Part shown: piece after piece, positions 6,533 through 48,157 of the stretch
How positions within the stretch are numbered: the stretch's first letter is position 1
Layout of the letters: each line of letters begins with the position of its first letter
NCBI GenBank assembly: GCA_948852945.1
Contig: CAQPBJ010000007.1
Span: 6,590 to 70,589 of the forward strand
Length of the DNA: 64,000 nt
Reading direction: 5' to 3'
DNA from: an uncultured Clostridia bacterium
GTDB lineage: Bacteria > Bacillota > Clostridia > TANB77 > CAG-508
Program-made: the position numbers and the translations under genes
Notes under the pieces: model-generated
The model's database searches: none
Seen by the model: only the letters and a program-made list of their open reading frames with translations
What the model was told of the DNA's origin: nothing

Positions 6533-7336
6533 TTGGAGGGGATTATTTTGGGAAAGATTATTGCGATTGCTAACCAAAAAGGAGGAGTCGGAAAGACTAC
6601 AACATCAGTTAATCTAAGTGCTTTACTAGCTAAAAAAGGTAAAAAAGTTCTTTTATTAGATGCTGATCCTCAAGGAAATGCAACAAGCGGGTTAGGAGTA
6701 GAGAAAAATTTTGAAAAATCATTGTACGATGTATTAATAAATGAAGAATCTATAGAAGATACACTACAAAGTACAGTAGAAAAAAATTTAAAAATATGCC
6801 CTTCAAATGTAAATTTAGCTGGTGCAGAAGTAGAATTAGTATCACAAATGTCTAGAGAACATCGATTAAAGGAACAACTAGATACAATAAAAAATAAATT
6901 CGACTATATATTTATAGATTGTCCACCTTCATTAGGTTTAATAACATTAAATTCATTTACTGCTGCTGATTCTGTATTAATACCTGTACAATGCGAATAT
7001 TATGCATTAGAAGGATTAGGACAGCTTATTAATACGATAAATTTAGTTAAAAAACATTTAAATAAATCATTAGAAATCGAAGGTGCTATACTAACAATGT
7101 ATGATATAAGAACTAATTTATCTAATCAAGTTGTAAAGGAAGTTAAAAAATATTTTGATAACAAAGTTTATAAAACTGTTATACCAAGGAATGTAAGACT
7201 TAGCGAAGCACCAAGCTTTGGAATGCCAATAACTACTTATGATCCTAAATCTAAAGGAGCTAAAAGCTATGAAAGATTGGCAAAAGAGTTTTTGAAAATG
7301 CAAGAACCAAAGGATAAACCAAAACATATGAAATAG
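6533..7336 (+). CDS. soj: chromosome partitioning ATPase ParA/Soj
   Basis: Deviant Walker A NQKGGVGKTTT. The likely true start is TTG at 6548, behind GGAGGGG at 6535-6541. Confidence 0.9.
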   Translation: MEGIILGKIIAIANQKGGVGKTTTSVNLSALLAKKGKKVLLLDADPQGNATSGLGVEKNFEKSLYDVLINEESIEDTLQSTVEKNLKICPSNVNLAGAEVELVSQMSREHRLKEQLDTIKNKFDYIFIDCPPSLGLITLNSFTAADSVLIPVQCEYYALEGLGQLINTINLVKKHLNKSLEIEGAILTMYDIRTNLSNQVVKEVKKYFDNKVYKTVIPRNVRLSEAPSFGMPITTYDPKSKGAKSYERLAKEFLKMQEPKDKPKHMK

Positions 7337-8733: not shown

Positions 8734-8825
<92 letters not shown>

Positions 8826-8864: not shown

Positions 8865-8956
8865 GGAGATTTACCCAAGTGGCTGAAGGGGACAGTTTGC
8901 TAAACTGTTAGGGTTCGTTTAGGGCCGCGAGGGTTCAAATCCCTCAATCTCCGCCA
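8865..8956 (+). tRNA. tRNA-Ser (anticodon GCU), CCA encoded
   Basis: Acceptor GGAGATT/AATCTCC. Anticodon stem ACAGT/ACTGT with loop TTGCTAA. Long variable arm. T arm GAGGG-TTCAAAT-CCCTC. Confidence 0.9.
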
Positions 8957-8990: not shown

Positions 8991-9628
8991 ATTTTCGGCA
9001 AATAGAATAAATTTCTAAAATAATTTTTAAAAGCGACGAGAATCTAAAAATATAATAAAAAGATAGATAGTGATGTAACTTTATTAAATAATTATAAAAA
9101 ACGAAATATGGCGATTTTAAAGCTTTAAAAAATGATGAAAAATAGTAAATATTTTATATAAAAAATAAATATAAAAAAGAGGCTTTAAAAAATTAAAAAA
9201 TAGATATTAATTATATAATAAAAAAATATATAATATTTTTGTGTATGAATTGTGGAATAAAAAAATATAAATCAAGAAATAAAATAAATTAAAAAATAAA
9301 AATTAGGAACTGTAAAAAAATAAAAAATATTAAAAAATTTAATGTAACATAAAAAGAGGTTGAAAAATAAGGAAAAAAATGAAATATATTACATAAAAAA
9401 TAAATAAATAAAAATAATTTTAAATATTAAAAAAAATAAATAAAAATAAAAAAATATTAAAAAATAATAAATAATAATAAATAATAATAAATAATTAAAA
9501 AAAATAATTATAATTAATCTAATGTAACAGAATAAATTTAATAATAATATGAAAAATTAGTTTAATGAATTTGAACAATATTTTTTTGAAAGATGATTTT
9601 GTTGTAGTTATAATTAATTAGTTTATGT

Positions 9629-9700
9629 TTGTCAAAATATTATATAAAATTAGCATTAAAAAAAGAAAAAGATATGCATATTGTTGTATCAAATTGACTA
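9629..9700 (+). promoter_or_regulatory. degenerate module copy (P0)
   Basis: TTGTCA at 9629-9634 and GACTAAAAAA at 9696, but the spacing is 65 rather than 45-47. No clear upstream box. Confidence 0.25.
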
Positions 9701-9926
9701 AAAAATAGAAATACTTTTTTGCGGAGTGTAGAATTTAGATTTTGGAGAGAAATTTTCTTAAAAGAGAAGATATGAGTTGAGTAATGTGTTTACAGATATA
9801 CAGAATTTAAAAGTAGTATATGTTCATAAGAACATTTTTTTAAATTTATTAAATTAAAATTATTCAATAAAATAAGAAATATTATAAAAAAAGAATGTTA
9901 ATTATACGCCTATAAATTTTAAAAGC

Positions 9927-10036
9927 TTGATATTAGTGGATTATATGTTTTAAAAGAAAGATAATTATTAAAAATAATTGTCAAAAAAGAAGTTCATGAT
10001 TATATGTATAAATATTTAAAGAGGAAGACAAAAAAT
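9927..10036 (+). promoter_or_regulatory. array module P1 (three-box unit with promoter-like core)
   Basis: TTGATA 9927-9932. Exact TTGTCAAAAAAGAAG 9978-9992, with 17 bp to TATATG at 10001-10006. AGACAAAAAA at 10026. Confidence 0.6.
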
Positions 10037-11079
10037 GAGTTTAAAAATATTAAGGGAGAAGTTTATTTGTAAAAGTCTTTATTTTTAAAAATTAGTAAAG
10101 ATGGACGGAATAATGAGAAAATTAAGATGATTTTAATTTTTAGTAAGATATAGTAGTAAATTAAACATAAGCTAAAAATAAAAAAGTTATGATATGTAAT
10201 AGCTATATTGTCTATTAAGCAACATGAAAAGTAGAGTAAAAAGAAAGCTATTATAATAGATATTAGAGAAAGAAAAGAGCTAAAAAATGAATATAAAATT
10301 TGAAAATGTATTAAAGAATAATTTGATATAAAAAGTTATTGAATTTAAAATATTGAAAAATTTATTAAATATAAAAAATATTGAAAAAAATATAGAAAAA
10401 TATTAAAGCAAATAAAAAAATATTGAAGTAAAAATAAAAAATATTAAAATAAAAAACGATAAAAAAAATAAATATAAAAAATAAATTTAATTTATAGGAA
10501 TATAATTATAAAAATTTTCTATAGATGAATAATATTATAAAAATATTTTTTAAAGAAATATCTATGAAGATAAAAAACTAAAAATAAATCTAGATAAAAT
10601 GAAAAAATTTTTTGAATAAGAAAAAGATTTGTTATTATTTATAAAAATTTAAAAATAAAATGAAGAAAAAACTTGTTTAGAAAATTTTAAGTAAAAATAA
10701 ATATCGGTAATACTTATTATTTATTTTTATTTTTTATTAATATTATAAAATGAAAATAAATGGATAAAAAATATATTCAAAAATATTAAAAAAATATAAT
10801 AATGGAATATAATATTACAAGTTTTCAATTATTATTTTAGAATATGAAAGTATTTTAAAATTAAAACTAACCATGAAAAAAGATGTATAAGGAGTTAATA
10901 AATTTGCAGTTTAATGTAAACATTTTTTTTCATTAAAAATGAGCGGTAATCGATAGAGAATTTTTTAAATTGCGATAGTATTCGTATTTTTTTTTATTTT
11001 ATAAATATATTTTTAGCAAAAATAGTAAAAATGTTCACTAAGTATACATAATACAGTATAATATAAAACTTTAAAAATG

Positions 11080-11189
11080 TTGATATAAAAGGATAGTATG
11101 CAATGCAAATACTTTATAAACAAAAAAGTATTGTCAAAAAAGAAGTATAGAGATATTTAAAAATATTTATTTGTGATAGACAAAAAAAT
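11080..11189 (+). promoter_or_regulatory. array module P2
   Basis: TTGATA 11080-11085. Exact 15-mer 11131-11145, with 17 bp to TATTTA at 11154-11159. AGACAAAAAAA at 11178. Confidence 0.6.
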
Positions 11190-12087
11190 GATATAAATAA
11201 TAACAATTATGATAAAAAAGTAAGTAAGTAATGAAAATGAGTTAACATAAAAGACAAAAAGATGGTAAGGAGCACCTATGATTTTAAAGTATAAAATTTG
11301 TAAGTTGTAATATAAAAAACAATGGAATAATACATAAAAAAGTAGTTTTTTTAAAATAAATTAAAATATTTATTTTTTATTATTAAATATAAAATAAAAG
11401 TAAATAAATTCTAAAAAATATTAAAAATTATTTATATTTTTTAGAAAGGAATGAATAAATAATTTTAAAAATAAGAAAATATAAAAAAATATTATTGTTT
11501 ATTTTAAATAATATTGAAAAAATATTTGAATAGAATCAAATATTTATTAAAAATAGTAGAGTAATTAATTTTTTCGGTAGATTAAAATTAATTATTTATT
11601 GTATAATCATTTTTATTATTTTATCGATTTATTAATATTAACTTTTTTAAAGAAAATTAATAGAAATTTTTTAGGAAGTTGATTGCTAACTTTATAATTA
11701 TCTAAATTAATTATAATTTAGATTTTATTTTCTAATTAATATTAAAAAAATAAAATAAGATCTAAAAAAATAAAGATAAATATTTAAAAAATAAAATTAA
11801 TTATTCAAAAATAAATTAAAAAATTAAGAATACTATTATGGAAATTATAATTATCATCAGGAAATTTATAAAGATAAAGATGAAGTTTAGGCAGCTTATT
11901 ATTACTAATATTTTATAAAAAAGAGAAAAGATCGGAAGATGTTTTTTTATAAAAGTAATGTTTTTAAATTTGAGTTGAAATTTGAATATTATCATTTTTT
12001 ATAAATTATATATCTATTATAGGTAAGTTTTTTTATGTTAACAACATAAAAAATACTGGTATTTTATTATATTATAGCTTAAATATC

Positions 12088-12194
12088 TTGATATAAGCTA
12101 AGTATATCTGATACATTAAAATAAAAAGTAACGGTATTTGTCAAAAAAGAAGGTTGCAAATATAGTGAAAAAATTTAAAAATGAGACAAAAAAA
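12088..12194 (+). promoter_or_regulatory. array module P3
   Basis: TTGATA 12088-12093. Exact 15-mer 12138-12152, with 17 bp to TATAGT at 12161-12166. AGACAAAAAAA at 12184. Confidence 0.6.
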
Positions 12195-12889
12195 GGCTAG
12201 CTTTTGTATAAAATTTTAAGTAAAGATGTTAAGCTAGTTACTTATTAGACAAAGTATGAAGGAAGAGATACGTAGAGATTATATGAATTTTTAAGATACA
12301 AATTGTATAAATAAATAGCAAAGTTTTTATTATATTACTATTAAAACTATACATGAAAAAATATACAAAAAAAGAATTTAAACATTAAAATAATATCAAA
12401 TAATTATTAAAAAATAAAATGAAAATTAGTTATAAATTTTATAATTTATATAAAAAGATGTATAAATAAAATAATTATATAAAAATAAGTAAAAAAGATT
12501 AGAACAAAATATGTATTTATTGTTATTTAAATTCTTTTTTTATTTCGAATATTTAAAATAATAAAAAATACTAATTAATTTATTAGAAATAATAAAAAAA
12601 TCTTAGAAAATTAATAATAACAAACTATTGAATAGTAATGTTTTTTATAGTATGAACTAGTGAAGAAAGATATGACAAATTAGCATAAAACAAATGATGT
12701 TTGTATAGTTTGATACACAGTTTATGACATTTAAATTTGTGATTTTTCTAGTGGATAAATTATGGAAAAATGTGAAGAAATTTAGTAAATTTAATTTTTT
12801 TGAGGTTTATTCTAATAAAAAAACATAATTATGTTAACTATCGAAAAATATTTCCTTCTTTAAAAGTAGGATACTAATTGATGTAATAC

Positions 12890-12999
12890 TTGATAATAGA
12901 GAATTATACATAATATTTAGGTATGAGGTTTTAAAAAACTTTGTCAAAAAAGAAGATTTAAAATATTAAGTAATTATTTTAGGTAGAAGACAAAAAAAC
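12890..12999 (+). promoter_or_regulatory. array module P4
   Basis: TTGATA 12890-12895. Exact 15-mer 12941-12955, with 17 bp to TATTAA at 12964-12969. AGACAAAAAAA at 12988. Confidence 0.6.
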
Positions 13000-13210
13000 A
13001 GGGATTATTAGCATATTTTGTTATTAAAAAATGAAAAAATTAATTTTTAGCTGGCTACAAGACAAAGCCTTAAATGGCTTATTTACGGTTTTTTATAAAA
13101 AAGACATATGATATCATAGCCAAATTATGTATAGAAAAATATATTTCTATACTAAAACTTAGAGATAAATAATGTTTTTTGCATTTAATTATAATGCATT
13201 AAAAAAATAA

Positions 13211-13390
13211 GAAAATTATTAAAAAAATTGGAGATATATAATCATATATTTTTATTTTTTTTGAAAATTAATGAGAAAATCAGAGATATATAATCATATA
13301 TTTCTATTTTTTGAAAATTAATTAGAAAATTAGAGATATATAAATTATATATTTCTATTTTTTTGAAAATTAATTAAAAAATAGAAATAA
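13211..13390. repeat. tandem repeat, ~51 bp x ~3.5, each copy with an imperfect dyad
   Basis: GAAAATTAAT(G/T)AGAAAAT(C/T)AGAGATATATAAT(C/T)ATATATTT(C/T)TATTTTTT repeats head to tail. The internal dyad is AGA(G/A)ATATAT-N4-ATATAT(T/C)TCT. Confidence 0.8.
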
Positions 13391-13864
13391 AAACATATAA
13401 AAATTTATAGTATTTATGAATTTAATTTTTGTATTTCATTAAAAAGTGTAGAATGTTTTATAGAGAATATATAATTTTATGAAATTTAAGTTTATATTAA
13501 TTGGCTGATTAAAAAATTATATATATATAAATATTGAAAGTTGTGTTCAGGTAAAAAAATTTATCTGGATTTTTTTATTATTTAATTATTTTTTTTGATT
13601 TTTTTTATTATTTATTATTTTTTTTTGAATTAATTAATATTTTTTAAATTAATAATAATTTTATTATTAAATCTCAGAAAAAATTATAAAAAATAAATTT
13701 TAAAAAACTGTGGATTGTAACATAAAAAAAATTAAAAAATGTACAAATATTTTATACACAAAACAAATGTTTATAGTGTTTAAAAATAAAATTTAAAAGT
13801 TTGATTTTTAGGATTAAACTGATAAGATTTTTTATAAAAAGTGTTTGAAAAAATGAAAAATTTA

Positions 13865-13985
13865 CTTCTTTTTTTGTCAAAGATATATTTTATTTCGAAT
13901 AAATGAAAAACTACTTTTTAGACAAATAAAAAAATATGTTAAAAATTATTAAATTTTTATTCAGTTGCTATATAGTACTATTTCC
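13865..13985 (-). promoter_or_regulatory. array module M1 (minus strand)
   Basis: Read on the minus strand: GGGAAATA (rc of 13979-13985), 60 bp, TTGTCTAAAAAGTAG (rc of 13911-13925), 45 bp, GACAAAAAAAGAAG (rc of 13865-13878). Confidence 0.5.
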
Positions 13986-14579
13986 CAAGGTTTTCACGAG
14001 TTTGTGTGCAATTTCATATTCTTTTTTTACTATTTTTTGTCTTTTAAAATTTCTTTTTTTGATTTAAGAAAGATAAAAAATTAAAAATGAAAATTAAAAA
14101 AAAGTTGAATAATAAGATTTTGATTATAAATTGTAAAATGAATATTTATTATAAAAACAAAAAAACAGAAAAAGTTGTTAAAAATTTGATTATTATGTAT
14201 TTGAAATTAGGTTACATAAAAAACTTTATATGCTAAAAGATAATAAGAAATTTAAAAAAATTTTTGTAACAATTAATGAAAAATAAATATGAAAAAAATA
14301 AAATTTATTGTTTTTTGCCTTTTTGAATTTTTTTTATTTTTTTATTATTTTTTAATAATTTTAATTAATTATTTTTTGTAATATTCTTGTTTTATTCGAA
14401 TTAATTTATAATATTAAATATATTATATATATTATATTGATAAAAATTAAATAGAGAAATTTAATCGAAAAAATTCTATTTTAATTTTTCTTTTAAGATT
14501 CGTTAATTTTTTTATTGTCTTATATTAGGATAATTTTTTTATAAATTTGCCTCATAAAGATTAAAGAATAGTACATTAT

Positions 14580-14691
14580 TGTCAAAACGTTTACTATTTT
14601 TTTTATAAGTTTTTTATTTTATATTTTAGCAAACATTTTTGAAAGTAAGTTTTAAAAATATAGAATAATATTTGCTGTTCCTTGTATTTCC
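14580..14691 (-). promoter_or_regulatory. array module M2
   Basis: Minus strand: GGAAATA (14685-14691), 59 bp, TTGCTA (14627-14632), 47 bp, GACAA (14580-14583). Confidence 0.45.
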
Positions 14692-15404
14692 TAGACTTTA
14701 AGGAAATGAGAATTTTATGAATGGTAAAAAATAATTTAAAATTTAAGTAAAAAAATATAGAAAATATTTAAAAAATAATTTTGAAATTGATAGTGTTAAA
14801 AAATAAAAAAATTTATCAGTTAAATAAAAAAATTTTTATTTTAGAAGAAATTTTAAAAAATAAAAATTTTAAAAAATAAAATATCTAGTTAATATAAATT
14901 AAATATGAATTAAATATGAAGACTTAATATATTCTATTATAATAATATAAGATTAAGGTGATATTTTTTATATTTAAATCATTAAATAGGGTGTGTAATA
15001 TTAAAAATATTTAGTAAAAAGCCTTTTTTTGACTTCATAGCTAAAAAGCTTATTTACAGACTTTAAAAAATAATTATTGATAAATTTATTTCCTAGTTGT
15101 AGAGGTAGTTTGAAAGAGTTACATTTAGATATATTATGAATGAGTTTTTATTAAATAAAAAAATATGATGAAAAGTATAATAATTCTTAAAAAATAAAAA
15201 ATATTTATTTTGATTTATTATTATTTTTTAAGATTATTTTTTGGAAAAAAAGTTGTAATACAAAAAAATACTGAAATATTTAAAGAATATTAAAAAAATA
15301 TAGAAAAATAAAAATTTTTTTATTTAAGTATTATATTGTGTTTTAGTATGAATTATATGTTGTCTAAACTAAAAAAAGTTCAAGAATTTAGTAAATTAGT
15401 TAAA

Positions 15405-15524
15405 TAGAATAATTGTCTTTGATAAATTAAATTTTAATATATTTGAATGGTTCTTTTTTGACAAATAAATTTTTAAAAAATAGTACTATATTAAATATGT
15501 AAGAATGAATTTTTAAGCATTTCC
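15405..15524 (-). promoter_or_regulatory. array module M3 (best minus-strand promoter-like copy)
   Basis: Minus strand: GGAAATG (15518-15524), 60 bp, TTGTCAAAAAAGAAC (15450-15464), 17 bp, TATATT (15436-15441). AGACAA is 45 bp downstream (15414-15417). Confidence 0.55.
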
Positions 15525-16099
15525 GCATAGTTCAAAGTTTTTAAAATTAAAAAATATATTAAATTAAATAAGTTTTTATTTTTAAATTTATATTTATAAT
15601 AACTATATTTATTATAAAAGAAAGATAAAAAAATAATAAATTTTTATTATTTAAATGAATTTAAATTTGAATAGAGGGGATAGAATTTTAAAATATTAAA
15701 TATAAATTTTAAATTAATGATTAAACAATAACTTTTAATTTTAAATATTTTTTTATTTGACAATATAAAATTTTTATCACTTTTTATAAAATTTGTTAAT
15801 TATACTATTTGAAGTGTAATATTTTTTATTAAAATAGAGTAGTTTTACCAAAAAAAAGAGTATTTTGATGCTAGTTTACAGCTATAAATAGAAAAAAATA
15901 AGAAATATTAATTTTTAATGATTTATGAATGTAATATATAAAGATTTTGTATTTAATATTAATAAATAGATATTAAAAAGGTAGAAAGGTAATTATATAA
16001 ATTAATAAAAAATTTTTGCAATTAAGATTTTTTATTTTGTCTTATTTTAATTTTATAAGAAAGATTTTTGATTTTATTGAGTAAATTTTTATAAAGTTT

Positions 16100-16211
16100 T
16101 GACTTTAAAATAAGTATTAAAAATGTTTTTTTATATATTTTCTTTTTTACAAAGATTTTTTTTAGATAGAATTAATATAAAGATATGATACGAGCTAATA
16201 TGCTTTATTCC
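16100..16211 (-). promoter_or_regulatory. array module M4
   Basis: Minus strand: GGAATAA (16205-16211), 59 bp, TTGTAAAAAAGAAAATATATAAAAA (from 16152 downward), 47 bp, GTCAAAA (16100-16103). Confidence 0.45.
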
Positions 16212-17496
16212 TATGTTTTTTAGATTTACTTATGAAAAATAAAATGGATAATTTACAATTTTGGTCATAAAATTTTTATAAAAAAATGTGAATTTTATAA
16301 AATTAAAAATTTATATTATATTATTGAATTTATTATTTAGGTTAAAAAAATTTTTTGAAATTAGTATTGGTTTGAAAATTTTAAAAAAGTTATTGATTAA
16401 AAAGAAAAAAGTTTTTATTTAAAGACTAATATTTTAAAAAATGAATAAATGGATACTGAGATATCTAACAGATTAATATATTAATTTTTTTTGTAATTTG
16501 ATATCTTAAAAATTGAATAAAAATTGTATGTGAAATTTTATGACTATTAATTTTTAAAAATATATTTTTTCTGTAAGCCTTGAAAGGAGCAGTTTTTAAT
16601 TTTTGACGTTTTTTTATTTGATAATTTGTATACATAAAATATTAGGGATTATTTTTTAATATTTATTTATATATTTTTTTAGAAGGAAAAATAGGTATTA
16701 CTTTTGTAATTTAATATATTTTTTTATAATAATTAAGGTATTATGTGATTGTATTTTTTTAAGATTATATATTATATAAGTGATAATTTATGAAAATTAC
16801 TTTGTCATTAAATAATTTATTTTATTATTATTTTTACTTATTGGTTAAATATTAGATAGTAATTAGTGATAAAAGATATGTTTTCTGTCATATTGTATAA
16901 AAAGTTAATGCTGGAAGTCCTTGATTTATAAGGAACGTATCAATTACAACAAAAAATGTGATAAATAAACTAAAATATTTTAACATATTTTCAATTATTT
17001 TATATTTATTATAATATTTGAATTAGCATTTTATTATTATATATATTATTTTTAAATATTTATTTATTAAAAAATATAATAATAGAGATAAAATATATAA
17101 AGAGAGGATAGCAAAATTGAATGTTAGAAAGTGTAATAAAAGGACTTAATATATATTAATAATATTTTATAGACTTATTTTTAATATAAATATAGCAGTT
17201 AATGAACTACTTGATACTCTAAGGATATAAATTTTTACTTAATTAATTTTAAAAATATATGTAATAAAAAGAATTTAATTAATTTATTAATGATTTTTTT
17301 TAAGAATATCTGTTTGTATATTTTTATATTTAAATTGTAATGTAAATGCTTTTTATTATTAATGATTCTTATTGATATAATAGAAGTCTATTTTTTATTA
17401 ATCATAAACTTAAAATATACTATATTTTATTTTGTCATAGTTTTAATTTTATGCATATATAAATGAAAATATCAAAAAAAATCTTAATTTTCTAAT

Positions 17497-17607
17497 TGTC
17501 ATTTAAAAATAGATTTTTTTGAAGTAATGAAAATACTTTTTTGGCAAAGAAATTCAAAAAGAAGATATAAAAATTAAATATGTAATTTCTATATACTATG
17601 TATTTCC
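17497..17607 (-). promoter_or_regulatory. array module M5
   Basis: Minus strand: TCGATACAACTTAGGAAATA (17601-17620), 60 bp, TTGCCAAAAAAGTAT (from 17547), 45 bp, GACAA (17497-17500). Confidence 0.5.
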
Positions 17608-18181
17608 TAAGTTGTATCGATTTTTATTTTTTAAAAAAATATTTAAATTTAATATTTTAATATTTTTATTTTTGGGTTTTTATGTACTCTAAGTGATGTA
17701 TTTTGATATCGAAATTAATGAAATCTTTCTTTTAGAGTCAAAATTTTTTTTAAGAAAAGTACCTTAAAACTAAAAGACTAAAAAATTGTGTAAAGTTTTT
17801 AATTTTGTTATAACTTTTTTTGCTTATTAAGAAAAGTTATTATTTTTACCGTATATTATTATAAAAATAGAACAGACGTGGAAAGCAGAGAATAGACTGT
17901 AATATATAAGGGGTTTTTTTGATCTTTTATATTTTTTAATATTTTTTAAAATTAAAATTAATTTTTTTAATTTATTTAAATACAAAAAAATTAAAAAAGT
18001 GGGAAATTATTTGTAATAATTGAGTTTTTTAGGTATAAAAGAAGTGATAGTTTTTATTGATTAAAAAAATAAAATCTTATAAGAGTAGATTAATAATATA
18101 AATATTTTTTAAAAGTATTGTCAATGATTATTTTTTTTAGAGAAAAAAATTATTTCTTAAAAGAAATAATTTTAAGTATTT

Positions 18182-18293
18182 TGTCAAATTATTATTCATT
18201 ATTTATATATTTTTATATATTTTCTTTTTTACAATTAATTTTTTATAGAGTATTTAGAAAAATATATTAATATCTTGTAATTCCTTTATATCC
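18182..18293 (-). promoter_or_regulatory. array module M6
   Basis: Minus strand: GGATATA (18287-18293), 59 bp, TTGTAAAAAAGAAAATATATAAAAA (from 18234, same subfamily as M4), 47 bp, GACAA (18182-18185). Confidence 0.45.
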
Positions 18294-18927
18294 TATGTTT
18301 TGTTGATTTAAATTAAAATAGAAATCATAAAAAAATATCAAATTTAGAACAAAAAATTCTATTTATTTAGTAGTGAGATAAATTAAGATAAAAATTATTT
18401 TTTTTATAAAAATTTGAATCTTGAGACTTAAAAATATATTTTTTTATGTTTTTAAAGATGATATTTATGAAAAAAATTTAAAGTTGCTAAAAAAGAAGAG
18501 TATAAATAAATAAATTCTTAAATATTAAAGTTAGAAGTATAAAAATAATAGTTATTTTATTGAGGTAATATTGTGTCAAATAAAATTAAGATTATTTTAA
18601 AAAATAATTTGAAAGCAATGTGCTTGAAATGCATGATACTGTAAGAGTTTGATTTTTCTACTATTTTATTTGAAATAAATTTATATTTTTTAATATTTAT
18701 TTTAAAAACAGATGTTTTGAAAGAATGATTAAAAATTATTAATATTTTGTAAAGAGTTATTTTGAAGTTTTATGGTCGAATTTATACTAGTAAGTGAATT
18801 ATTATTATAAATTTACTAATAAGATAAATAATTATTAAAAATTAAAAAATTAATGTTTTTAGATTGTCTTTTATAATTAAGGTTTTAATTATAATTGAAA
18901 ATATTTAAAAAGCTTAATTTTACAAGT

Positions 18928-19038
18928 TGTCTTTTTTTGGAGCATTTTTTTAAAGAACAATTATTACTTTTTTGCCAAATAAATATTTTAAGTCTAATAT
19001 ATGCAGATATATTAGATTTACTAAAAATCAGTATTTCC
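18928..19038 (-). promoter_or_regulatory. array module M7
   Basis: Minus strand: GGGAAATA (19032-19038), 60 bp, TTGGCAAAAAAGTAA (from 18978), 45 bp, AGACAA (18928-18931). Confidence 0.5.
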
Positions 19039-19633
19039 CTTGGTTTTAGAGAATTGTTTTTTTAAAATATTATTAATATTTTGATTATTTTAAATTTTTT
19101 TATTTGGATATTGATTTTGATAGAAAATACTTTTTATATTAGATTTTTTTATTATAATAGTGTAGAGGCAATTTAATATACGATATAAATATTTTAGAAA
19201 ACATATTGACTAAAAAAAATATAAAAATTTTAATAGGAATAAAAAAATTATTTGACAATTTTTAAAATAATTTAAATTGGCTTTATGTTGCTTTGAATTG
19301 ATGAATTTAGAATAAAAATTTTAATTTTTGGTGATTATTTTTATAAGGGCTTTATTATATGTAATATAATATGTTAGAAATGATTTTTTCTGATTTTTTT
19401 TAATTTTTAATTAATTTAATTAATTAAATTATATTTTTTATATATTTATTTTAATTTTTTTTATTAAATAATTAGATAAATTCATGTAATAATATATTTT
19501 TGCTTTTTAATGTATATATTCTTTTGAATAGATGATCTAAAAATAAATTATTAATTTGAGAAATTATTTTTGTCAGTATTTAATTTAGTATAAAAAAATT
19601 TTGACCGTTTATTTTGAGTTTTAAACGGTTTTT

Positions 19634-19760
19634 TGTCATTAGGTTGAGTAGTTTTATTATTAATTTTTTTTTTGGAATTTTTGCAACTAATTTTAAAAAT
19701 GAAAAAAGTGGTTAATAAATAAAACGGGATTTCACTGGTGTTTCCCATGTTATATCGATT
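19634..19760 (-). promoter_or_regulatory. array module M8
   Basis: Minus strand: TCGATATAACATGGGAAACA (19739-19760), 59 bp, TTGCAA (19681-19686), 47 bp, GACAAAAAA (19634-19637). Confidence 0.4.
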
Positions 19761-20078
19761 TCGGAAAAATCACAAATTACTGAAAATGTTTTTTAGACTT
19801 AAAATTTTTTGATTTTATTTAGTGAAAAATAATTAAAAAAATTTTAAAAAAATAATTTAAAATAGTGTGTATAAAAAAATAAATAATTAGAAATTTTATA
19901 TTTATAAGAACAATGAATATATTTAATTTTTAAATTGATTTAAAAATTAGAGCAATAGACAATATTTAAATATTTATTTATTATTTTTTTTATACAAATT
20001 TTATAAAAAATCACAATAATGTCTGTAATACTAATTTGTATATATTTTTTTAATATTTTAATAAAATATATAATAAAT

Positions 20079-20113
20079 AAAAAAATAAAGTGAATATGTT
20101 GATTATTCACTTT
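20079..20113 (-). terminator. terminator downstream of the activase-fusion gene
   Basis: AAAGTGAATA (20087-20096) pairs with TATTCACTTT (20104-20113). The A run at 20079-20085 gives a U tract on the minus strand. Confidence 0.55.
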
Positions 20114-20142
20114 ATTTTTAAAAGTTAAAAAATATTAATTTA

Positions 20143-23100
20143 TTATTTTTTATTATTTTTTTGTTCGGTTTTTAAGTTGTCTTTTGCAACTGTCATTAAT
20201 AATTTTAATCTATTTGTTTGGTTTGATTCACTTGCTCCAGGATCATAATCTACTGGTGTTATATTAGCATTTGGATAAGTTTCTCTAATTGTTTTTATTA
20301 CACCTTTACCAACTATATGATTTGGAAGACAAGCAAATGGTTGAACGCAAACGATGTTTGGAATATTATGTTCTATATATTCTACCATTTCAGCAGTTAA
20401 GAACCAGCCTTCACCAGTTTGATTTCCTATAGATAATATATCTTTTACTTTATTTTCTAAGTGCCAGATATCACAAGGAGGAAGATAGTTTTTCTTTGAA
20501 TTTGATAGTGCAATTTTTAAATCTTTTTCGAAAATATCTATTAACTTGATGGCTACTTTAAAAATTGCAGCTTTTGTTTTATCTATTTTTAATAGTTTAT
20601 TGAATGTTATTTTATGTGTAGCTATAAATTTTATAAATCCCATAAAATCTGGTAATACTACTTCTGCGCCTTCTTTTTCTAAAACATTTGCTACAAAGTT
20701 ATTTCCAAAAGGATGATATTTTATTAATACTTCTCCAACTATACCAACTTTAGGCTTTTCAATATTATTATTTATTTCTATTTTTTCAAAATCTTCAACT
20801 ATATCGTAAATGCTTTGTTTAAATTGTTTACTATTAGATTTTTCAACTAACTTTTTACATTTTTCAAGCCATTCATTATATAGTTTTTCAGTTTCACCTT
20901 TATTTATTTCATATGCTCGATTTTTCATTAATAATTTTTGTAGTAGGTCACCATAAGTGACGCTTTTTAATAGTCTTTCTGCTAGGCCAAGTGTAATTTT
21001 GAATCCAGACATTTTTTCCATACCAACTACATTGAATGATATAACAGGTACTTGAGAAAATCCAGCATCTTTTAGAGCTTTTCTTATAAAACCTATATAA
21101 TTTGTGGCTCTACATCCACCACCTGTTTGAGACATTATTAATGCAGTTTTGTTAGGATCATACTTTCCAGATTCTAAGGCTTCTATCATTTGCCCAGTAG
21201 TTAAAATAGATGGATAACAAGCATCATTATTTACATATTTCAATCCTGTTTCAACTGTATTTGGTGTACATTCTCTTAATAATTCTACATTGTATCCACA
21301 AGATTTAACTGCTGTTTCTATTAATTCAAAGTGGATTGGAGCCATTTGAGGAATTAAAATAGTATAATCCTTTTTCATTTCTTTAGTAAATTCTATAGGA
21401 TGAAGTTCATAATCTCCTACGGATTTACATTCCTCACAGTTTTGTCTTTCTGACTTTTCCTTAATTTTTTTGTTCATACTAGCTAATAATGAACGTATAC
21501 GTATTCTAACAGCACCTAAGTTATTAACTTCATCAATTTTAATTAATGTGTACATGTTATCATAACTTTTTAATATTTCTTCTACTTGATCTGTTGTTAC
21601 TGCGTCTACACCACAGCCAAAAGAATTTAACTGTATTAGTTCTAAGTTATCGTGTTGACCTGTAAATTCTGCAGCTGCATATAGTCTTGCATGATATACC
21701 CATTGGTCTACGACTCTAATTGGTCTTTTAGCTTCAGTTTTTTTAGAAATACTGTCTTCAGAAAGTACACATAAGCCTAAGCTTGTTATTAATGTGTCGA
21801 TGCCATGATTTACTTCTGGATCTACATGATATGGTCTACCAGCAAGTACAATGCCGCGTAGGTCATTTTTATTCATATAGTCTAATATTTCTTGACCTTT
21901 TTTATCTACATCGTTTTTAAAGTTTTGGTATTCTTCTTCAGCTTTTTTAGCAGCTTCTAATAGTTCCTTTTTTGTAAAATTATATTCTTTAAATTCATCA
22001 CGCTCTAAAATGACCTGTACTAGATTTTTTGCCTCGAAAGGTAAAAATGTATTGATGAACTTAATATTTTCGGATTTTAGGCCTTCTACGTTGTTTTTAA
22101 GTACTTCTGAATATGATATTACTATTGGACAGTTATAATGATTGTTTGCTTTTTGATATTCTTTTCTTGAATATGGTATACAAGGATAGAATATTGTTTT
22201 AATGCCTTGTTCAAGTAAGTTCATTATGTGTCCATGACTTAATTTAGCTGGGTAACATACAGATTCAGATGGCATTGATTCCATTCCTTTTTCATAGGTT
22301 TTTCTAGTACTTTTTTCTGAAAGAATAACTCTAAATCCTAAGTTCGTTAGGAAAGTGAACCAGAATGGATAATCCTCATACATATTTAAAACTCTAGGAA
22401 TACCTATTGTTCCACGATATGCTTTTTCTTCTGCTAGAGGTTCATAGCCAAATAATCTTTCAAATTTATATTTGTATATATTTGGTAGATTCTTAGCCTC
22501 TGTAATTCCGCCACTTCCTTTTTCACAGCGATTTCCAGATATAAAAGATTTATTATCATTGAATTTATTTATAGTTAGAAGACAATTGTTTTCACATTTT
22601 CCACAACGTACTTGAGTTGTTTTAATATTCAAATTGTTTAATTCTTCTGTTTTAAGCAATGTTGAAGTGTATTCCATATCTAAGTTTGCTTCAAATTGTT
22701 CTTTAGAAAGTAAGGCAACTCCATAGGCACCCATTAATCCAGAGATAGATGGTCTTATTACATTTTGTCCTACTAGAAGTTCAAAGCTTCTTAAAACTGC
22801 ATCATTGTAGAAAGTTCCACCTTGTACAACTATATGTTTTCCAAGTGTTTTCATATCGCGGACTTTCATAACTTTTTGAATAGCATTTTTTACTACGGAG
22901 AAGGAAAGTCCAGCTGAAATATCTCCAACACTATAACCTTCTTTTTGAGCTTGTTTAATTTTAGAATTCATAAAAACTGTACATCTTGAACCTAAGTCTA
23001 CAGGCGCTTTTGATTCAATTGCTGCTTTAACGAATTCTTCTATAGATAGGCCTAAACTTTTTGCGAAAGTTTCAATAAAAGAACCACATCCAGAAGAGCA

Positions 23101-37761: not shown

Positions 37762-37885
37762 TTACAAAGACCTATTATTAATAGGTCTTTTGTTGTAAAT
37801 TGCTCAATTTCTCACTCGCATTTTATAATGCTCGTTTGGTCGCTAGCGCAATTTAAAATTAATTATTATATGTTAAGTTTATTTA
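37762..37885 (-). repeat. truncated copy of the hairpin-flanked intergenic element (copy 3)
   Basis: Retains ATTGCTCAATTTC..GCATTTTATAATGCTCGTTTGGTCGCTAGCGC and one arm. Lacks the TTGCTCTTCGCAA segment. Sense strand inferred from copy 2. Confidence 0.6.
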
Positions 37886-41618: not shown

Positions 41619-42321
41619 AGATAGAAAAAAGATAGGTATGGTTTTATTAGGAATATTTTGTTTTTCAGCAGTATTATGTACCAGTGTAAACAATACTAGA
41701 GAATCTATATTGGTGTCTGCTACACCTGTTTCGTCAAAAGTAATTGTATTGGATGCTGGACATGGAAAACCTGATGGTGGAGCAGAAAGCCCTAATGGAA
41801 TTACTGAAGAAAAAACTAATTTAGATATAGTACTTAAAGTACAAAAATATTTAGAGGAGAGTGGAAGTACAGTTATTTTAACTAGATCAGATGAAAATGG
41901 AATTCATGATTTAGATAAACAGACACTTAAAGAAAAGAAAGTTTCTGATGCAAAAAATAGAGTTAAAATAGGAAATGAGGCATCTGCTGATATTTTTGTT
42001 TCGATTCATTTAAATAAAGGTGAAAGTTCACAATATAATGGATGGCAAACTTTTTATAGAGAGAATGATGAGAATGGAAAGAGATTAGCTAAATGTGTTC
42101 AAGATGGATTAAAAGAAACAATAAAGGTTGAAAACAAAAGAACTGAAAACGCAATAAAAGGAATTTATATAACTGATCATGTAGAAATTCCGATAACTAT
42201 TGTTGAATGTGGCTTTTTATCTAATCCACAAGAAGAAAAGAAATTGATAACAGATGAATATCAAAATGAATTAGCATGGGGAATATATACAGGAATATTA
42301 AATTATTTTAACTCAAATTAA
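41605..42321 (+). CDS. cwlD: N-acetylmuramoyl-L-alanine amidase CwlD (germination-specific, amidase_3)
   Basis: VIVLDAGHGKPDGGA..SIHLN..ECGFLSN motifs. The likely true start is ATG 41638, because 41605 lies inside the upstream terminator hairpin. Confidence 0.8.
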   Translation: MIVFLDRKKIGMVLLGIFCFSAVLCTSVNNTRESILVSATPVSSKVIVLDAGHGKPDGGAESPNGITEEKTNLDIVLKVQKYLEESGSTVILTRSDENGIHDLDKQTLKEKKVSDAKNRVKIGNEASADIFVSIHLNKGESSQYNGWQTFYRENDENGKRLAKCVQDGLKETIKVENKRTENAIKGIYITDHVEIPITIVECGFLSNPQEEKKLITDEYQNELAWGIYTGILNYFNSN

Positions 42322-42329
42322 AATTGAAT

Positions 42330-42492
42330 AATACAAAGACAGTGATATAAAATTTAAAATTTGCTCTTCGCAATCTCCGAATAAAAAACTTCGTTTTTAT
42401 ATTGTAGATTGCTCAAATTCGCACTTCATTCACTACGTTCATTTTGTTTGGTCGCTAGCGCATTTTAAATTTTATATCACTGTCTTTGTATT
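42330..42492 (-). repeat. hairpin-flanked intergenic element, full copy 1
   Basis: 31-bp perfect inverted arms (42330-42360 and 42462-42492) enclose a ~100-nt core containing TTGCTCTTCGCAA, GATTGCTCAAATTCGCAC and GGTCGCTAGCGC. Fills the whole gap between convergent stop codons. Confidence 0.8.
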
Positions 42493-43437
42493 TTAGACTT
42501 TTAATTTTTTAATTTCTTTAGCTTCTTTATATAGTTGAGCTATATGTTCTTTTCTATTTTTGTAAGAAATTTTATATTCATTTAGAGCATTTTCAAAGTT
42601 ATCTATAGTTTCGCCATTGCTTTTTCTCAAATACATTTCAACTCCTTGTTTGAAATATTCTTTTTTAGATTCAGAATTAGTTGATAAGTATTTTTTATAG
42701 TATTTTTCAGCTTCATTTAGACGTTTAATTTCTTCTTCAATAAATTGCACATATTCAGATCTAACTACTATTTCATATTCGGTATCTTCTAAAATGACTT
42801 TAAATAGGGCTTTTAATATTTTTTTATCAATTTTGCCAACAGTTGCATCTTTGATAATCATTTTTATACCTTCTTTGGGCTTTAAAGGCTCTGAATTTTG
42901 AATTAATATATTAAGGGTATCAATTATACCAATATGTGTTTTGTATTGCCTTTTGGCGCTTATGGCTTCAAATTCATCAGCAACACGTATAATTTGGGCT
43001 TCATAAGGAATATCTTTTTTTGTTAATCCTTGAGGATAGCCGGATCCATTTAATGCTTCGTGGTGATAATATGCTCCAGCAGCATATGGTCTAAGTTTTA
43101 AATCTTTCATGCACATATTGTATCCAATTGTTGTATGAGTTTTCATTATTTCATATTCTTCATCAGTAAGTTTAGATGTTTTTTGTAGTACAGAAGGGGG
43201 AATAAATAATTTACCTAAATCATGAAGATATGCGCAAATTGTACAATAAATTGTAAAACCTTCTTCACAGTGTAGATGTTCACAAAGTCTACATGTTATT
43301 GTGGCAACATTTTCACAATGTTTTCGTGTATAAGCATCTAAACTATCCAAACAACCAAGCTGATATCTCATTGCAGAATCAAGGTTGTAAGATTTTAACG
43401 AAGTTCTGTCATAAAAGTCAAATTCGGGATCTTTCAT
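42493..43437 (-). CDS. HD-GYP-type HD-domain phosphohydrolase
   Basis: LHDLGK.. and HHEALNGSGYPQGL (HD-GYP signature), plus a C-terminal coiled-coil extension. Confidence 0.8.
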   Translation of the reverse strand: MKDPEFDFYDRTSLKSYNLDSAMRYQLGCLDSLDAYTRKHCENVATITCRLCEHLHCEEGFTIYCTICAYLHDLGKLFIPPSVLQKTSKLTDEEYEIMKTHTTIGYNMCMKDLKLRPYAAGAYYHHEALNGSGYPQGLTKKDIPYEAQIIRVADEFEAISAKRQYKTHIGIIDTLNILIQNSEPLKPKEGIKMIIKDATVGKIDKKILKALFKVILEDTEYEIVVRSEYVQFIEEEIKRLNEAEKYYKKYLSTNSESKKEYFKQGVEMYLRKSNGETIDNFENALNEYKISYKNRKEHIAQLYKEAKEIKKLKV

Positions 43438-47900: not shown

Positions 47901-47933
47901 GGTATTCTATAATTAGAAATGTTGAAGTATTGC

Positions 47934-48157
47934 GGTATTTTAACAATATAATATTATTTAAATTGAAATTATAAAGTATAGTCGTAAAAATTAAAATGCG
48001 CTAGCGACCAAACGAGCATTTATATGCGAGTGCGAAATTGAGCAATTGACCTTATAAAAACGGAGTTTTTTATTAAGGTAATTGCGAAGAGCAAATTTTG
48101 ATTTTTATGACTATACTTTATAATTTTTTAGATACTTAAATATATTGTTAGAATACC
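47934..48157 (+). repeat. hairpin-flanked intergenic element, full copy 2 (opposite orientation to copy 1) with extra outer stem
   Basis: Inner arms 47969-47997 and 48095-48123 (29 bp, two G-T pairs). Outer arms 47934-47950 and 48141-48157 (17 bp, one T-G pair). The core has GCGCTAGCGACCAAAC, GTGCGAAATTGAGCAAT and TTGCGAAGAGCAA. Confidence 0.8.

Follow-up and report, generated by a model that had tools for sequence, protein, structure and literature searches.

Small interspersed repeats are common in bacteria. Among them are the REP/REPIN sequences, which are mobilised by RAYT transposases: palindromes scattered outside genes, folding into long hairpins where genes end and evolving by compensatory change within the hairpin; REPs are 20-40 nt long, with a conserved GTAG head, conserved arms and a strand bias. 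The pneumococcal SPRITE, BOX and RUP repeats and the Correia elements of Neisseria are regarded as MITE-like and for the most part parasitic, with effects on the genes transcribed along with them (PMC3049150). SPRITE, from a Firmicute, is a small and AT-rich example of an interspersed repeat; its duplex is much longer than that of normal terminators and leads into a U-rich tract. Conservation at its ends is limited to very short terminal repeats, neither a mobilising enzyme nor a target-site duplication is known for it, and it is regarded as parasitic yet able to terminate transcription (PMC3049150). In S. pneumoniae, BOX is a composite assembled from modules (boxA-boxB(n)-boxC): the terminal modules pair and interior modules can be missing, multiplied or exchanged with the outer stem undisturbed (PMC3049150). 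Correia/NEMIS elements are intergenic and measure 100-160 bp; inverted repeats of 26 bp enclose an internal segment, the hairpins are long, and the elements can serve both to terminate transcription and as RNase III targets (PMC3049150).

The element analysed here belongs to an undescribed family hosted by a 25%-GC, spore-forming, uncultured gut Clostridium lineage. We place the family among the small interspersed palindromic repeats, foldback/MITE-like, with SPRITE, BOX, RUP and the Correia elements as its nearest described analogues. The features just listed for SPRITE recur here, termination of transcription as a predicted one; in SPRITE, however, the stem sequence is conserved and a large, conserved asymmetric core is lacking, whereas the family here has locus-specific arms and a three-box core, and the two share no sequence similarity. 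The modular build with an undisturbed outer stem is shared with BOX, but the terminal modules of BOX are conserved in sequence and its insertion makes target-site duplications; in our family only the ~8-16 nt of arm adjoining the core are conserved, and no duplication was seen. Size, intergenic position, long hairpins and inverted repeats around an internal segment are shared with Correia elements, which, unlike our family, have the same terminal repeats in all copies and duplicate TA on insertion; in our family it is the core that is conserved, with different arms at each locus. Dispersed gene-end hairpins with compensatory evolution are common to REP/REPIN and the present family, but membership was rejected because the arms here are locus-specific and AT-rich, with no GTAG head and no strand bias. 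Integron attC sites carry R''/R' core sites (RYYYAAC ... GTTRRRY) at the ends of imperfect palindromes and lie in cassette arrays. This assignment was also rejected, since the ends here read ..AAAAT/TTGCTC and GCGC/ATTTT... and the copies are single and dispersed among housekeeping genes, with no cassette arrays. Of the properties of MITEs, the family has short length (<~300 bp), non-coding, AT-rich and highly base-paired sequence, and presence/absence polymorphism; it lacks terminal repeats common to all copies and, at the junctions that were informative, a direct target-site duplication.

The window, by which we mean the whole 64,000-nt stretch of DNA that was analysed (G+C 25.0%), contains the copy that we call A. 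Its 31-nt arms, 42330-42360 (AATACAAAGACAGTGATATAAAATTTAAAAT) and 42462-42492, are perfectly complementary, as a previous sequence-only reading had claimed, and flank a 101-nt core, giving 163 bases in total. The inverted repeat extends imperfectly to 51 nt per side (42315-42365 and 42457-42507, 88%). At 25% G+C, chance would give the window ~4e-9 inverted repeats that are perfect over 31 bp and spaced by <=300 nt; relative to shuffled sequence, the fold z-scores of copy A are -11.1 and -10.1, one per strand. The copy occupies the gap of a convergent gene pair, just as that reading had it: an Amidase_3 ORF ends at 42321, and the stop codon of a minus-strand gene with an HD/HD_5 domain starts at 42493, adjoining the final base of the 3' arm. 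The seven neighbouring genes examined are all housekeeping genes, none encoding a transposase, in agreement with the earlier claim that no transposase lies nearby, and there is no recombinase among the neighbours of copy A.

Read on the plus strand, the 5' arm of copy A consists of an outer 18 nt, locus-specific and A-rich, and an inner ~13 nt (TAAAATTTAAAAT) similar to inner arms elsewhere in the family. Box 1 (TTGCTCTTCGCAAT, 42361-42374) is near-invariant across copies and overlaps hairpin H1/P2 (42370-42413), which has the stem GCAATCT/AGATTGC and a terminator-like tip, AAAAAAC-TTC-GTTTTT. Box 2 (ATTGCTCAAATTCGCAC, 42408-42424), also near-invariant, repeats the box 1 motif TTGCTC..TTCGCA and is followed by the variable H2 module (42425-42446), present here in a 'type 2' version with poorer pairing. 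Box 3 (TTTGGTCGCTAGCGC, 42447-42461) contains the palindrome CGCTAGCG and leads into the 3' arm, whose outer end is T-rich. In the predicted fold, TGCT of box 1 is paired with AGCG of box 3.

Two further copies in the window had been proposed from the sequence, one in the opposite orientation and a truncated one at 37.8 kb, and both were recovered. Copy B (47966-48126, minus strand) lies between the stop codon of TatD and the promoter of a release-factor gene. Its core (47998-48094) is 80% identical to that of copy A, and it has arms of its own, ~32 nt each with 2 mismatches (47966-47997 and 48095-48126), in which AAATTATAAAGTATAGTCGTAAAAATTAAAAT pairs with ATTTTGATTTTTATGACTATACTTTATAATTT. 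These arms are unlike those of copy A in sequence yet are paired, indicating that what is conserved is the core and the fact of arm pairing, not the arm sequence. Copy C (37794-37871, plus strand) is a truncated 3' half of ~78 nt, scoring 25.5 bits against the covariance model. It retains box 2 (37799-37815), H2 and box 3 (37835-37849), together with a right arm without a partner, and directly follows the spoIIE terminator (37766-37790). A covariance-model search of the whole window returned copies A, B and C only, and BLAST agreed; among hairpin-type inverted repeats in the window (arms <=300 nt apart), only the arms of A and B reach >=88% complementarity. Elsewhere in the window, positions 9000-20500 are extremely AT-rich and of low complexity, with many degenerate direct and inverted repeats, including three tandem units of ~51 nt at 13242-13393; this stretch lies just downstream of two tRNA genes (8734-8822 and 8865-8953).

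Scans of public genomes and metagenomes yielded ~30 distinct full copies. Species-representative genomes provided two real copies, both in uncultured Clostridium MAGs, and the metagenome scan returned 34 stretches, ~27 of them real and distinct. Pattern matches in L002, L003, L026, L030, L034, L050 and L053 were rejected as chance matches in GC-rich coding DNA, as was a match in a viral contig. Because copies were retrieved by exact pattern in boxes 2 and 3, diverged relatives are under-sampled, and the invariance of box 3 and of part of box 2 is partly by construction, both having been used as search anchors. On long contigs there is roughly one copy per 30-40 kb, with <=4 on one 147-kb contig. 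Contigs of the window's own species, one of them from a mouse gut sample, have identical copies A, B and C. At the level of strains, the only differences in the 221-nt intervals around copies A and B were at 42366 in box 1 (strain L008; C/G, a variant also found in L004) and at 47952 and 47984 (strain L009); at 47984, a mismatch in the arm of copy B is perfectly paired in L009. One diverged relative of the core, with 41% G+C and 40 bits against the family model (L046:7759-7870, the same as L029:7090-7201), includes GGTTGCTCCAATCGCATTGCGCAATCTGTGATTGCTCCATTTGGTCGCTCCGCAC and stands in tandem with a short family variant (L046:7881-7968); it may represent a related or ancestral family.

Blastn against plasmid and phage collections found no match to the family, and in the ~0.5 Mb of sampled loci the boxes bounded no transposase and no longer, autonomous partner, and no box 1-box 3 pair lay at coding-length distance. 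On these searches, the refuting case named in the sequence-only reading, a core inside a known IS, group II intron or prophage end, did not arise. An Rfam scan of the whole window at gathering scores detected two tRNAs only, and copy A gave only weak generic miRNA-hairpin matches (24.7 bits against a gathering score of 211). A known RNA family was ruled out by these gathering and permissive scans, and literature searches by box strings and by topic found no published name for the boxes. The sequence-only reading, which had recognised neither a known RNA family nor a normal terminator or known MITE, was therefore upheld, the repeat proving to be part of a dispersed family.

Thirty full copies follow one order from 5' to 3': 5' arm, box 1 (TTGCTCTTCGCAAT), H1, box 2 (ATTGCTCAAWTTCGCAC), H2, box 3 (TTTGGTCGCTAGCGC) and 3' arm. 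The unit, ~165 bp in total, is an asymmetric core of ~100 nt between arms of ~31 bp. Across these copies the three boxes and H1 (consensus stem GCAATCT/AGATTGC, tip AAAAAAC-TCC-GTTTTT) are nearly invariant and H2 is variable; both box 1 and box 2 contain TTGCTC..TTCGCA. The element has no ORF, the G+C content of the core is ~30-36% in a 25% genome, and fold z-scores run from -8.7 to -11. In P2, five copies show a compensatory change from C-G to U-A. H2 is mostly a 7-bp hairpin whose stems differ yet remain paired (GCAAAC, GTAAAC, GATAAAC, GAAAAC, CGAAAT, GGTGC, GCAT), and in helix 5, 6/7 pairs are changed on both sides. Over the family, 91% of structure cells form a standard pair, compared to 73% after shuffling and 39-48% in slid controls, and 289 cells are changed on both sides, compared to 102 and 76-102, respectively; 0 of 500 shuffles reached the observed values by any measure. 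The compensatory changes in P2 and H2 indicate that conserved structure extends beyond the arms.

The interior of the element is modular. In copy L023, H1 is flipped, matching the consensus hairpin in reverse complement at all but one base. A short form (L041:3964-4039) is without H1 and keeps 31-nt arms, and L055 is also without H1, to be read with caution at a contig coverage of only 2.7x. L042 and L048 occupy orthologous sites with flanks 93-96% identical, and have the arms, box 1 and the GCTAGCGC end in common; the ~75-80 nt between box 1 and GCTAGCGC are completely different, and the alternative interior of this pair is also present at another locus (L059). We conclude that interior modules of the family are open to inversion, deletion and exchange.

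Of 948 arm positions aligned within copies, 895 (94%) form Watson-Crick pairs, and the inner, near-perfect arm measures 29-33 nt in ~26/30 copies. Between copies, arm identity is 0.68 in the 8 nt adjoining the core, 0.46 at 8-16 nt and 0.41-0.42 further out, where 0.40 is expected from composition. In the ~0.5 Mb sampled, the unique part of an arm matched only itself, its partner arm and orthologous loci, and no non-orthologous copies sharing locus-specific arms were found. Given these matches, and with no core-less palindromes of this type, we rejected the idea that the arms are a second repeat family or were copied from elsewhere. What the sequence-only reading could not see is that the family shares the pairing and length of the arms, not their 31-bp sequence. 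In one sub-family (L020, L021, L024, L028, L047 and L052) the arms are homologous over all 32 nt, with the terminus AATCTTAA/TTAAGATT, indicating that at least there the whole arm was inherited and then diverged while paired. Paired changes also separate the orthologues L023 and L043. A second tier is present in many copies; in it, a diverged spacer of 10-20 nt is followed outward by a perfect inverted repeat of 14-28 nt. Upstream of the full copy in L004 there is a ~110-nt tandem duplication of the left arm and a degenerate box 1 start (L004:1-165), such that a 24-nt arm segment is present twice, at 16-39 and 125-148.

Comparison with relatives, in which synteny around the window is conserved (amidase 71-95% identical), revealed sites without the element. 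Sites B and C are empty in L013, and site B is empty also in L015 and L018, with the promoter sequence conserved there. At a site upstream of ytxC, occupied in L051, L058 has a plain terminator and no element; only the right half of this old terminator is kept in L051, orphaned outside an insertion of ~235 nt, so that the direction of change at the ytxC site is insertion. Because related genomes are empty at A (L013, L061 and L062), B, C and the L051 ytxC locus, copies have been gained. No target-site duplication was found at the B, C and L051 junctions relative to the empty sites; site A is uninformative in this respect because of its palindromic context. Beside one copy, gpr (germination protease, Peptidase_A25) is present as two ORFs of 131 and 133 aa in L051:8492-9425 and L055:3314-4247 and intact (310 aa) in L059:3281-4213; a pseudogene, a frameshift or an error of assembly could each account for the split.

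At two loci the DNA outside the inner arms has been copied in inverted form. To the right of copy B, TATATTGTTAGAATACC (48141-48157), just upstream of the -35 box, is native and conserved in L013, L015 and L018. Across the insertion, the left outer tier (47901-47950) contains it inverted as GGTATTTTAACAATATA (47934-47950) and partly again as GGTATTCTA (47901-47909), and these inverted duplicates of the native right flank have no counterpart in the empty sites of the relatives. The left outer tier of L051 (ATTTATAAATAAGATTGTTATAT, 23 nt) takes in the final 12 nt of the coding sequence upstream, with its stop codon; these 12 nt are identical in L058, and the perfect inverted copy of the tier occurs only on the far side of the insertion. 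Both cases show the palindrome growing by inverted copying of flanking DNA.

The element is found at gene ends. In 20 of the 21 copies with both neighbours known, a gene 3' end faces it; the core lies 31-105 nt from the stop codon in 20/21 contexts, with the next start always further away than that stop. The 5' outer arm is A-rich and the 3' outer arm T-rich in 28 of 29 copies (p ~1e-7), and arm G+C content is maximal 17-24 nt from the core, an arrangement that, judged by composition, has the polarity predicted for a bidirectional terminator. A simple consensus terminator scan left the hairpins of the family uncalled, a result attributable to their AT-rich stems and large loops, the 'loop' here being 100 nt. 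No consistent promoter was found within the element. In L051 the element displaced half of the old terminator and now probably does that job; we take it that the local terminator has probably been replaced there.

On balance, we consider it rather probable that the family is a mobile palindromic repeat acting at the DNA level; it would be non-autonomous, provide bidirectional terminators or take the place of existing ones, and have its arms kept paired by template switching. Such a repeat would spread as DNA via a putative trans-acting function that recognises the conserved boxes. After insertion, its long hairpin would serve as, or replace, the local bidirectional intrinsic terminator or 3'-end stabiliser, and this role would account for the tolerance of the element at gene ends. 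During replication, intrastrand template switching (snap-back copying) would keep the arms perfect and sometimes lengthen them. The inverted flank copies, the H1 flip, the paired changes between L023 and L043 and the near-perfect arms are the expected products of such switching, which has been proposed to perfect bacterial inverted repeats and is an established model (PMC5941160). The process, known as quasipalindrome correction, turns imperfect inverted repeats perfect and can copy adjacent sequence inverted (PMC5941160), and so fits the perfect arms, the paired changes in orthologues, the H1 flip and the inverted flank duplications seen here. Quasipalindrome correction is a general process of mutation rather than a family of elements; it explains the upkeep and extension of the arms but not the spread of the core. 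Counting against our reading are the failure to find a box-bounded transposase or partner in the ~0.5 Mb sampled, the lack of a visible target-site duplication at the filled/empty pairs, the conservation of boxes and H1 far above that of the arms, and locus-specific arms that were found neither in the empty sites at B and L051 nor in any non-orthologous copy.

Alternatively, the family could be an ordinary MITE of ~127 nt with AT-rich terminal repeats of 13-16 nt, inserted by a conventional transposase into the loops of host bidirectional terminators, so that the outer half of each arm is the host stem. We judge this somewhat improbable. It gains from the position of the elements at gene 3' ends, from outer arms with the composition and polarity of a terminator, from arm conservation between copies that is limited to the inner 8-16 nt, and from site A in L013, where a 42-nt bidirectional terminator has a stem homologous, in both arms, to the outer 18 nt of copy A, with two compensated differences. 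However, the closest relatives at site A (L061 and L062) have no arm-like hairpin: only 19 nt separate the two stop codons, the 18-nt sequence is missing, and the terminator stem is built from the gene ends themselves. Nothing like the locus-specific inner arms is present at the empty sites of B and L051 ytxC, one sub-family has arms homologous over the full 32 nt, and arm length is tight at 29-33 nt. In addition, no target-site duplication and no matching IS were found, and the window has no other long palindromes that might have been targets. Since the stem is homologous in L013 and missing in L061 and L062, the direction of change at site A is ambiguous between a host terminator as target, a remnant of an older element and independent gains. 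The gene-end terminator of these two relatives (L061:904-922 and L062:903-921) is formed by AAAAGTCTAA/TTAGACTTTT, with a compensated difference between the organisms (AAGTGTAA/TTACACTC). Between the same two stop codons, L015 and L016 have unrelated inserts of 200 nt (L015:8721-8920) and 174 nt (L016:8718-8891); the former contains a 17-bp perfect inverted repeat, GAACAATGGACGTGGAC...GTCCACGTCCATTGTTC, that ends on the base before the stop of the HD gene. The gap between the amidase and HD genes looks like a hotspot of hairpin turnover.

A mode of spread new among bacterial repeats is also conceivable, though we hold it to be unlikely. A core-recognising protein would couple insertion to fold-back synthesis that copies the adjacent DNA inverted, so that each copy builds its own ~31-bp stem. 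If this were true, the unique arms, their tight length, the missing target-site duplications and the inverted flank duplicates would all be footprints of the process, and each copy would create a new long bidirectional terminator or replace an old one.

Another interpretation, for which we see little likelihood, is a structured ncRNA, either a multi-copy small RNA or a 3'-UTR module, with a three-way junction of a long P1 made by the arms, H1 and H2, and with boxes that, as the conserved junction strands, bind protein or are catalytic. Conserved single-stranded boxes with variable but paired stems are a classic signature of functional RNA, the fold is very stable, and transcripts of small Firmicute repeats, such as BOX, are known (PMC3049150). 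Against this, there is no Rfam match and no consistent promoter in the element, and closely related genomes differ by gain and loss of copies. The element is oriented at random with respect to the transcription around it: in tandem gene contexts, 9 cores are sense and 8 antisense. Among transition mismatches in the arms, 11 would be G.U on the core strand and 16 on the other, with neither strand favoured. With no bias in G.U or in orientation, strand-specific selection on an RNA was rejected. Moreover, H1 can be inverted or deleted and the whole interior replaced with arms and ends kept. Symmetric mismatches, random orientation, flip or loss of H1 and interior exchange fit a modular DNA-level palindrome better than a strand-specific RNA, and the evidence as a whole speaks for a repeat that moves as DNA rather than for a strand-specific RNA or an element of the 3' UTR.

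The boxes might instead be a site recruited by the host, bound or cleaved on an extruded cruciform by a chromosomal protein of the nucleoid, topoisomerase, recombinase or repair type. REP/BIME elements, which bind IHF and gyrase, offer an analogy. Box sequence is strongly conserved whatever the orientation, TTGCTC..TTCGCA is repeated in box 1 and box 2, spacing is fairly regular at about one copy per 30-40 kb, and box 1 and the GCTAGCGC end are kept even where the interior is replaced. A core chromosomal function is, however, hard to square with the absence of the element from the syntenic 16 kb of all close relatives, and the family is confined to a narrow lineage; we find this reading very doubtful.

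An invertible phase-variable switch, in which the 31-bp repeats would be recombination sites and a flip of the core would alter expression of the neighbouring genes, is suggested by inverted repeats around a short asymmetric segment and by one contig of a related organism (L059) with the core reversed at an orthologous site, but is highly improbable given that orthologous pairs from large-k assemblies share orientation, that 100 bp is very short for site-specific inversion, that dozens of copies have one core, and that neither an adjacent recombinase gene nor a promoter in the core was found. Inversion of the core between orthologous sites was itself rejected, its sole case, L059, being a k=31 contig in which the arms are >=31 nt; with arms at least as long as k, the orientation of that core is unreliable and possibly an assembly artefact. 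Several k=31 contigs end inside the left arm, and short-read contigs stop repeatedly within the element: L010, L011 and L012 do so at 6755, and L055-L057, L059 and L060 start 170-207 nt before ytxC. Perfect inverted repeats of 31 bp break k=31 assemblies at element sites, where core orientation can be scrambled.

In this family the usual pattern of small repeats is reversed, with a nearly invariant interior and arms conserved only in pairing and length. Conservation of the boxes and H1 far beyond that of the arms and H2 is unusual for a MITE, whose conserved part is its terminal repeats, and could reflect host-level selection on a functional core. Taken with the inverted flank duplications and the lack of target-site duplications, the reversed pattern points to an unusual mode of spread or to strong, orientation-independent selection on the ~100-nt core. 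If the predicted terminator role holds, gene-end terminators in this uncultured gut lineage would be replaced by mobile hairpins.
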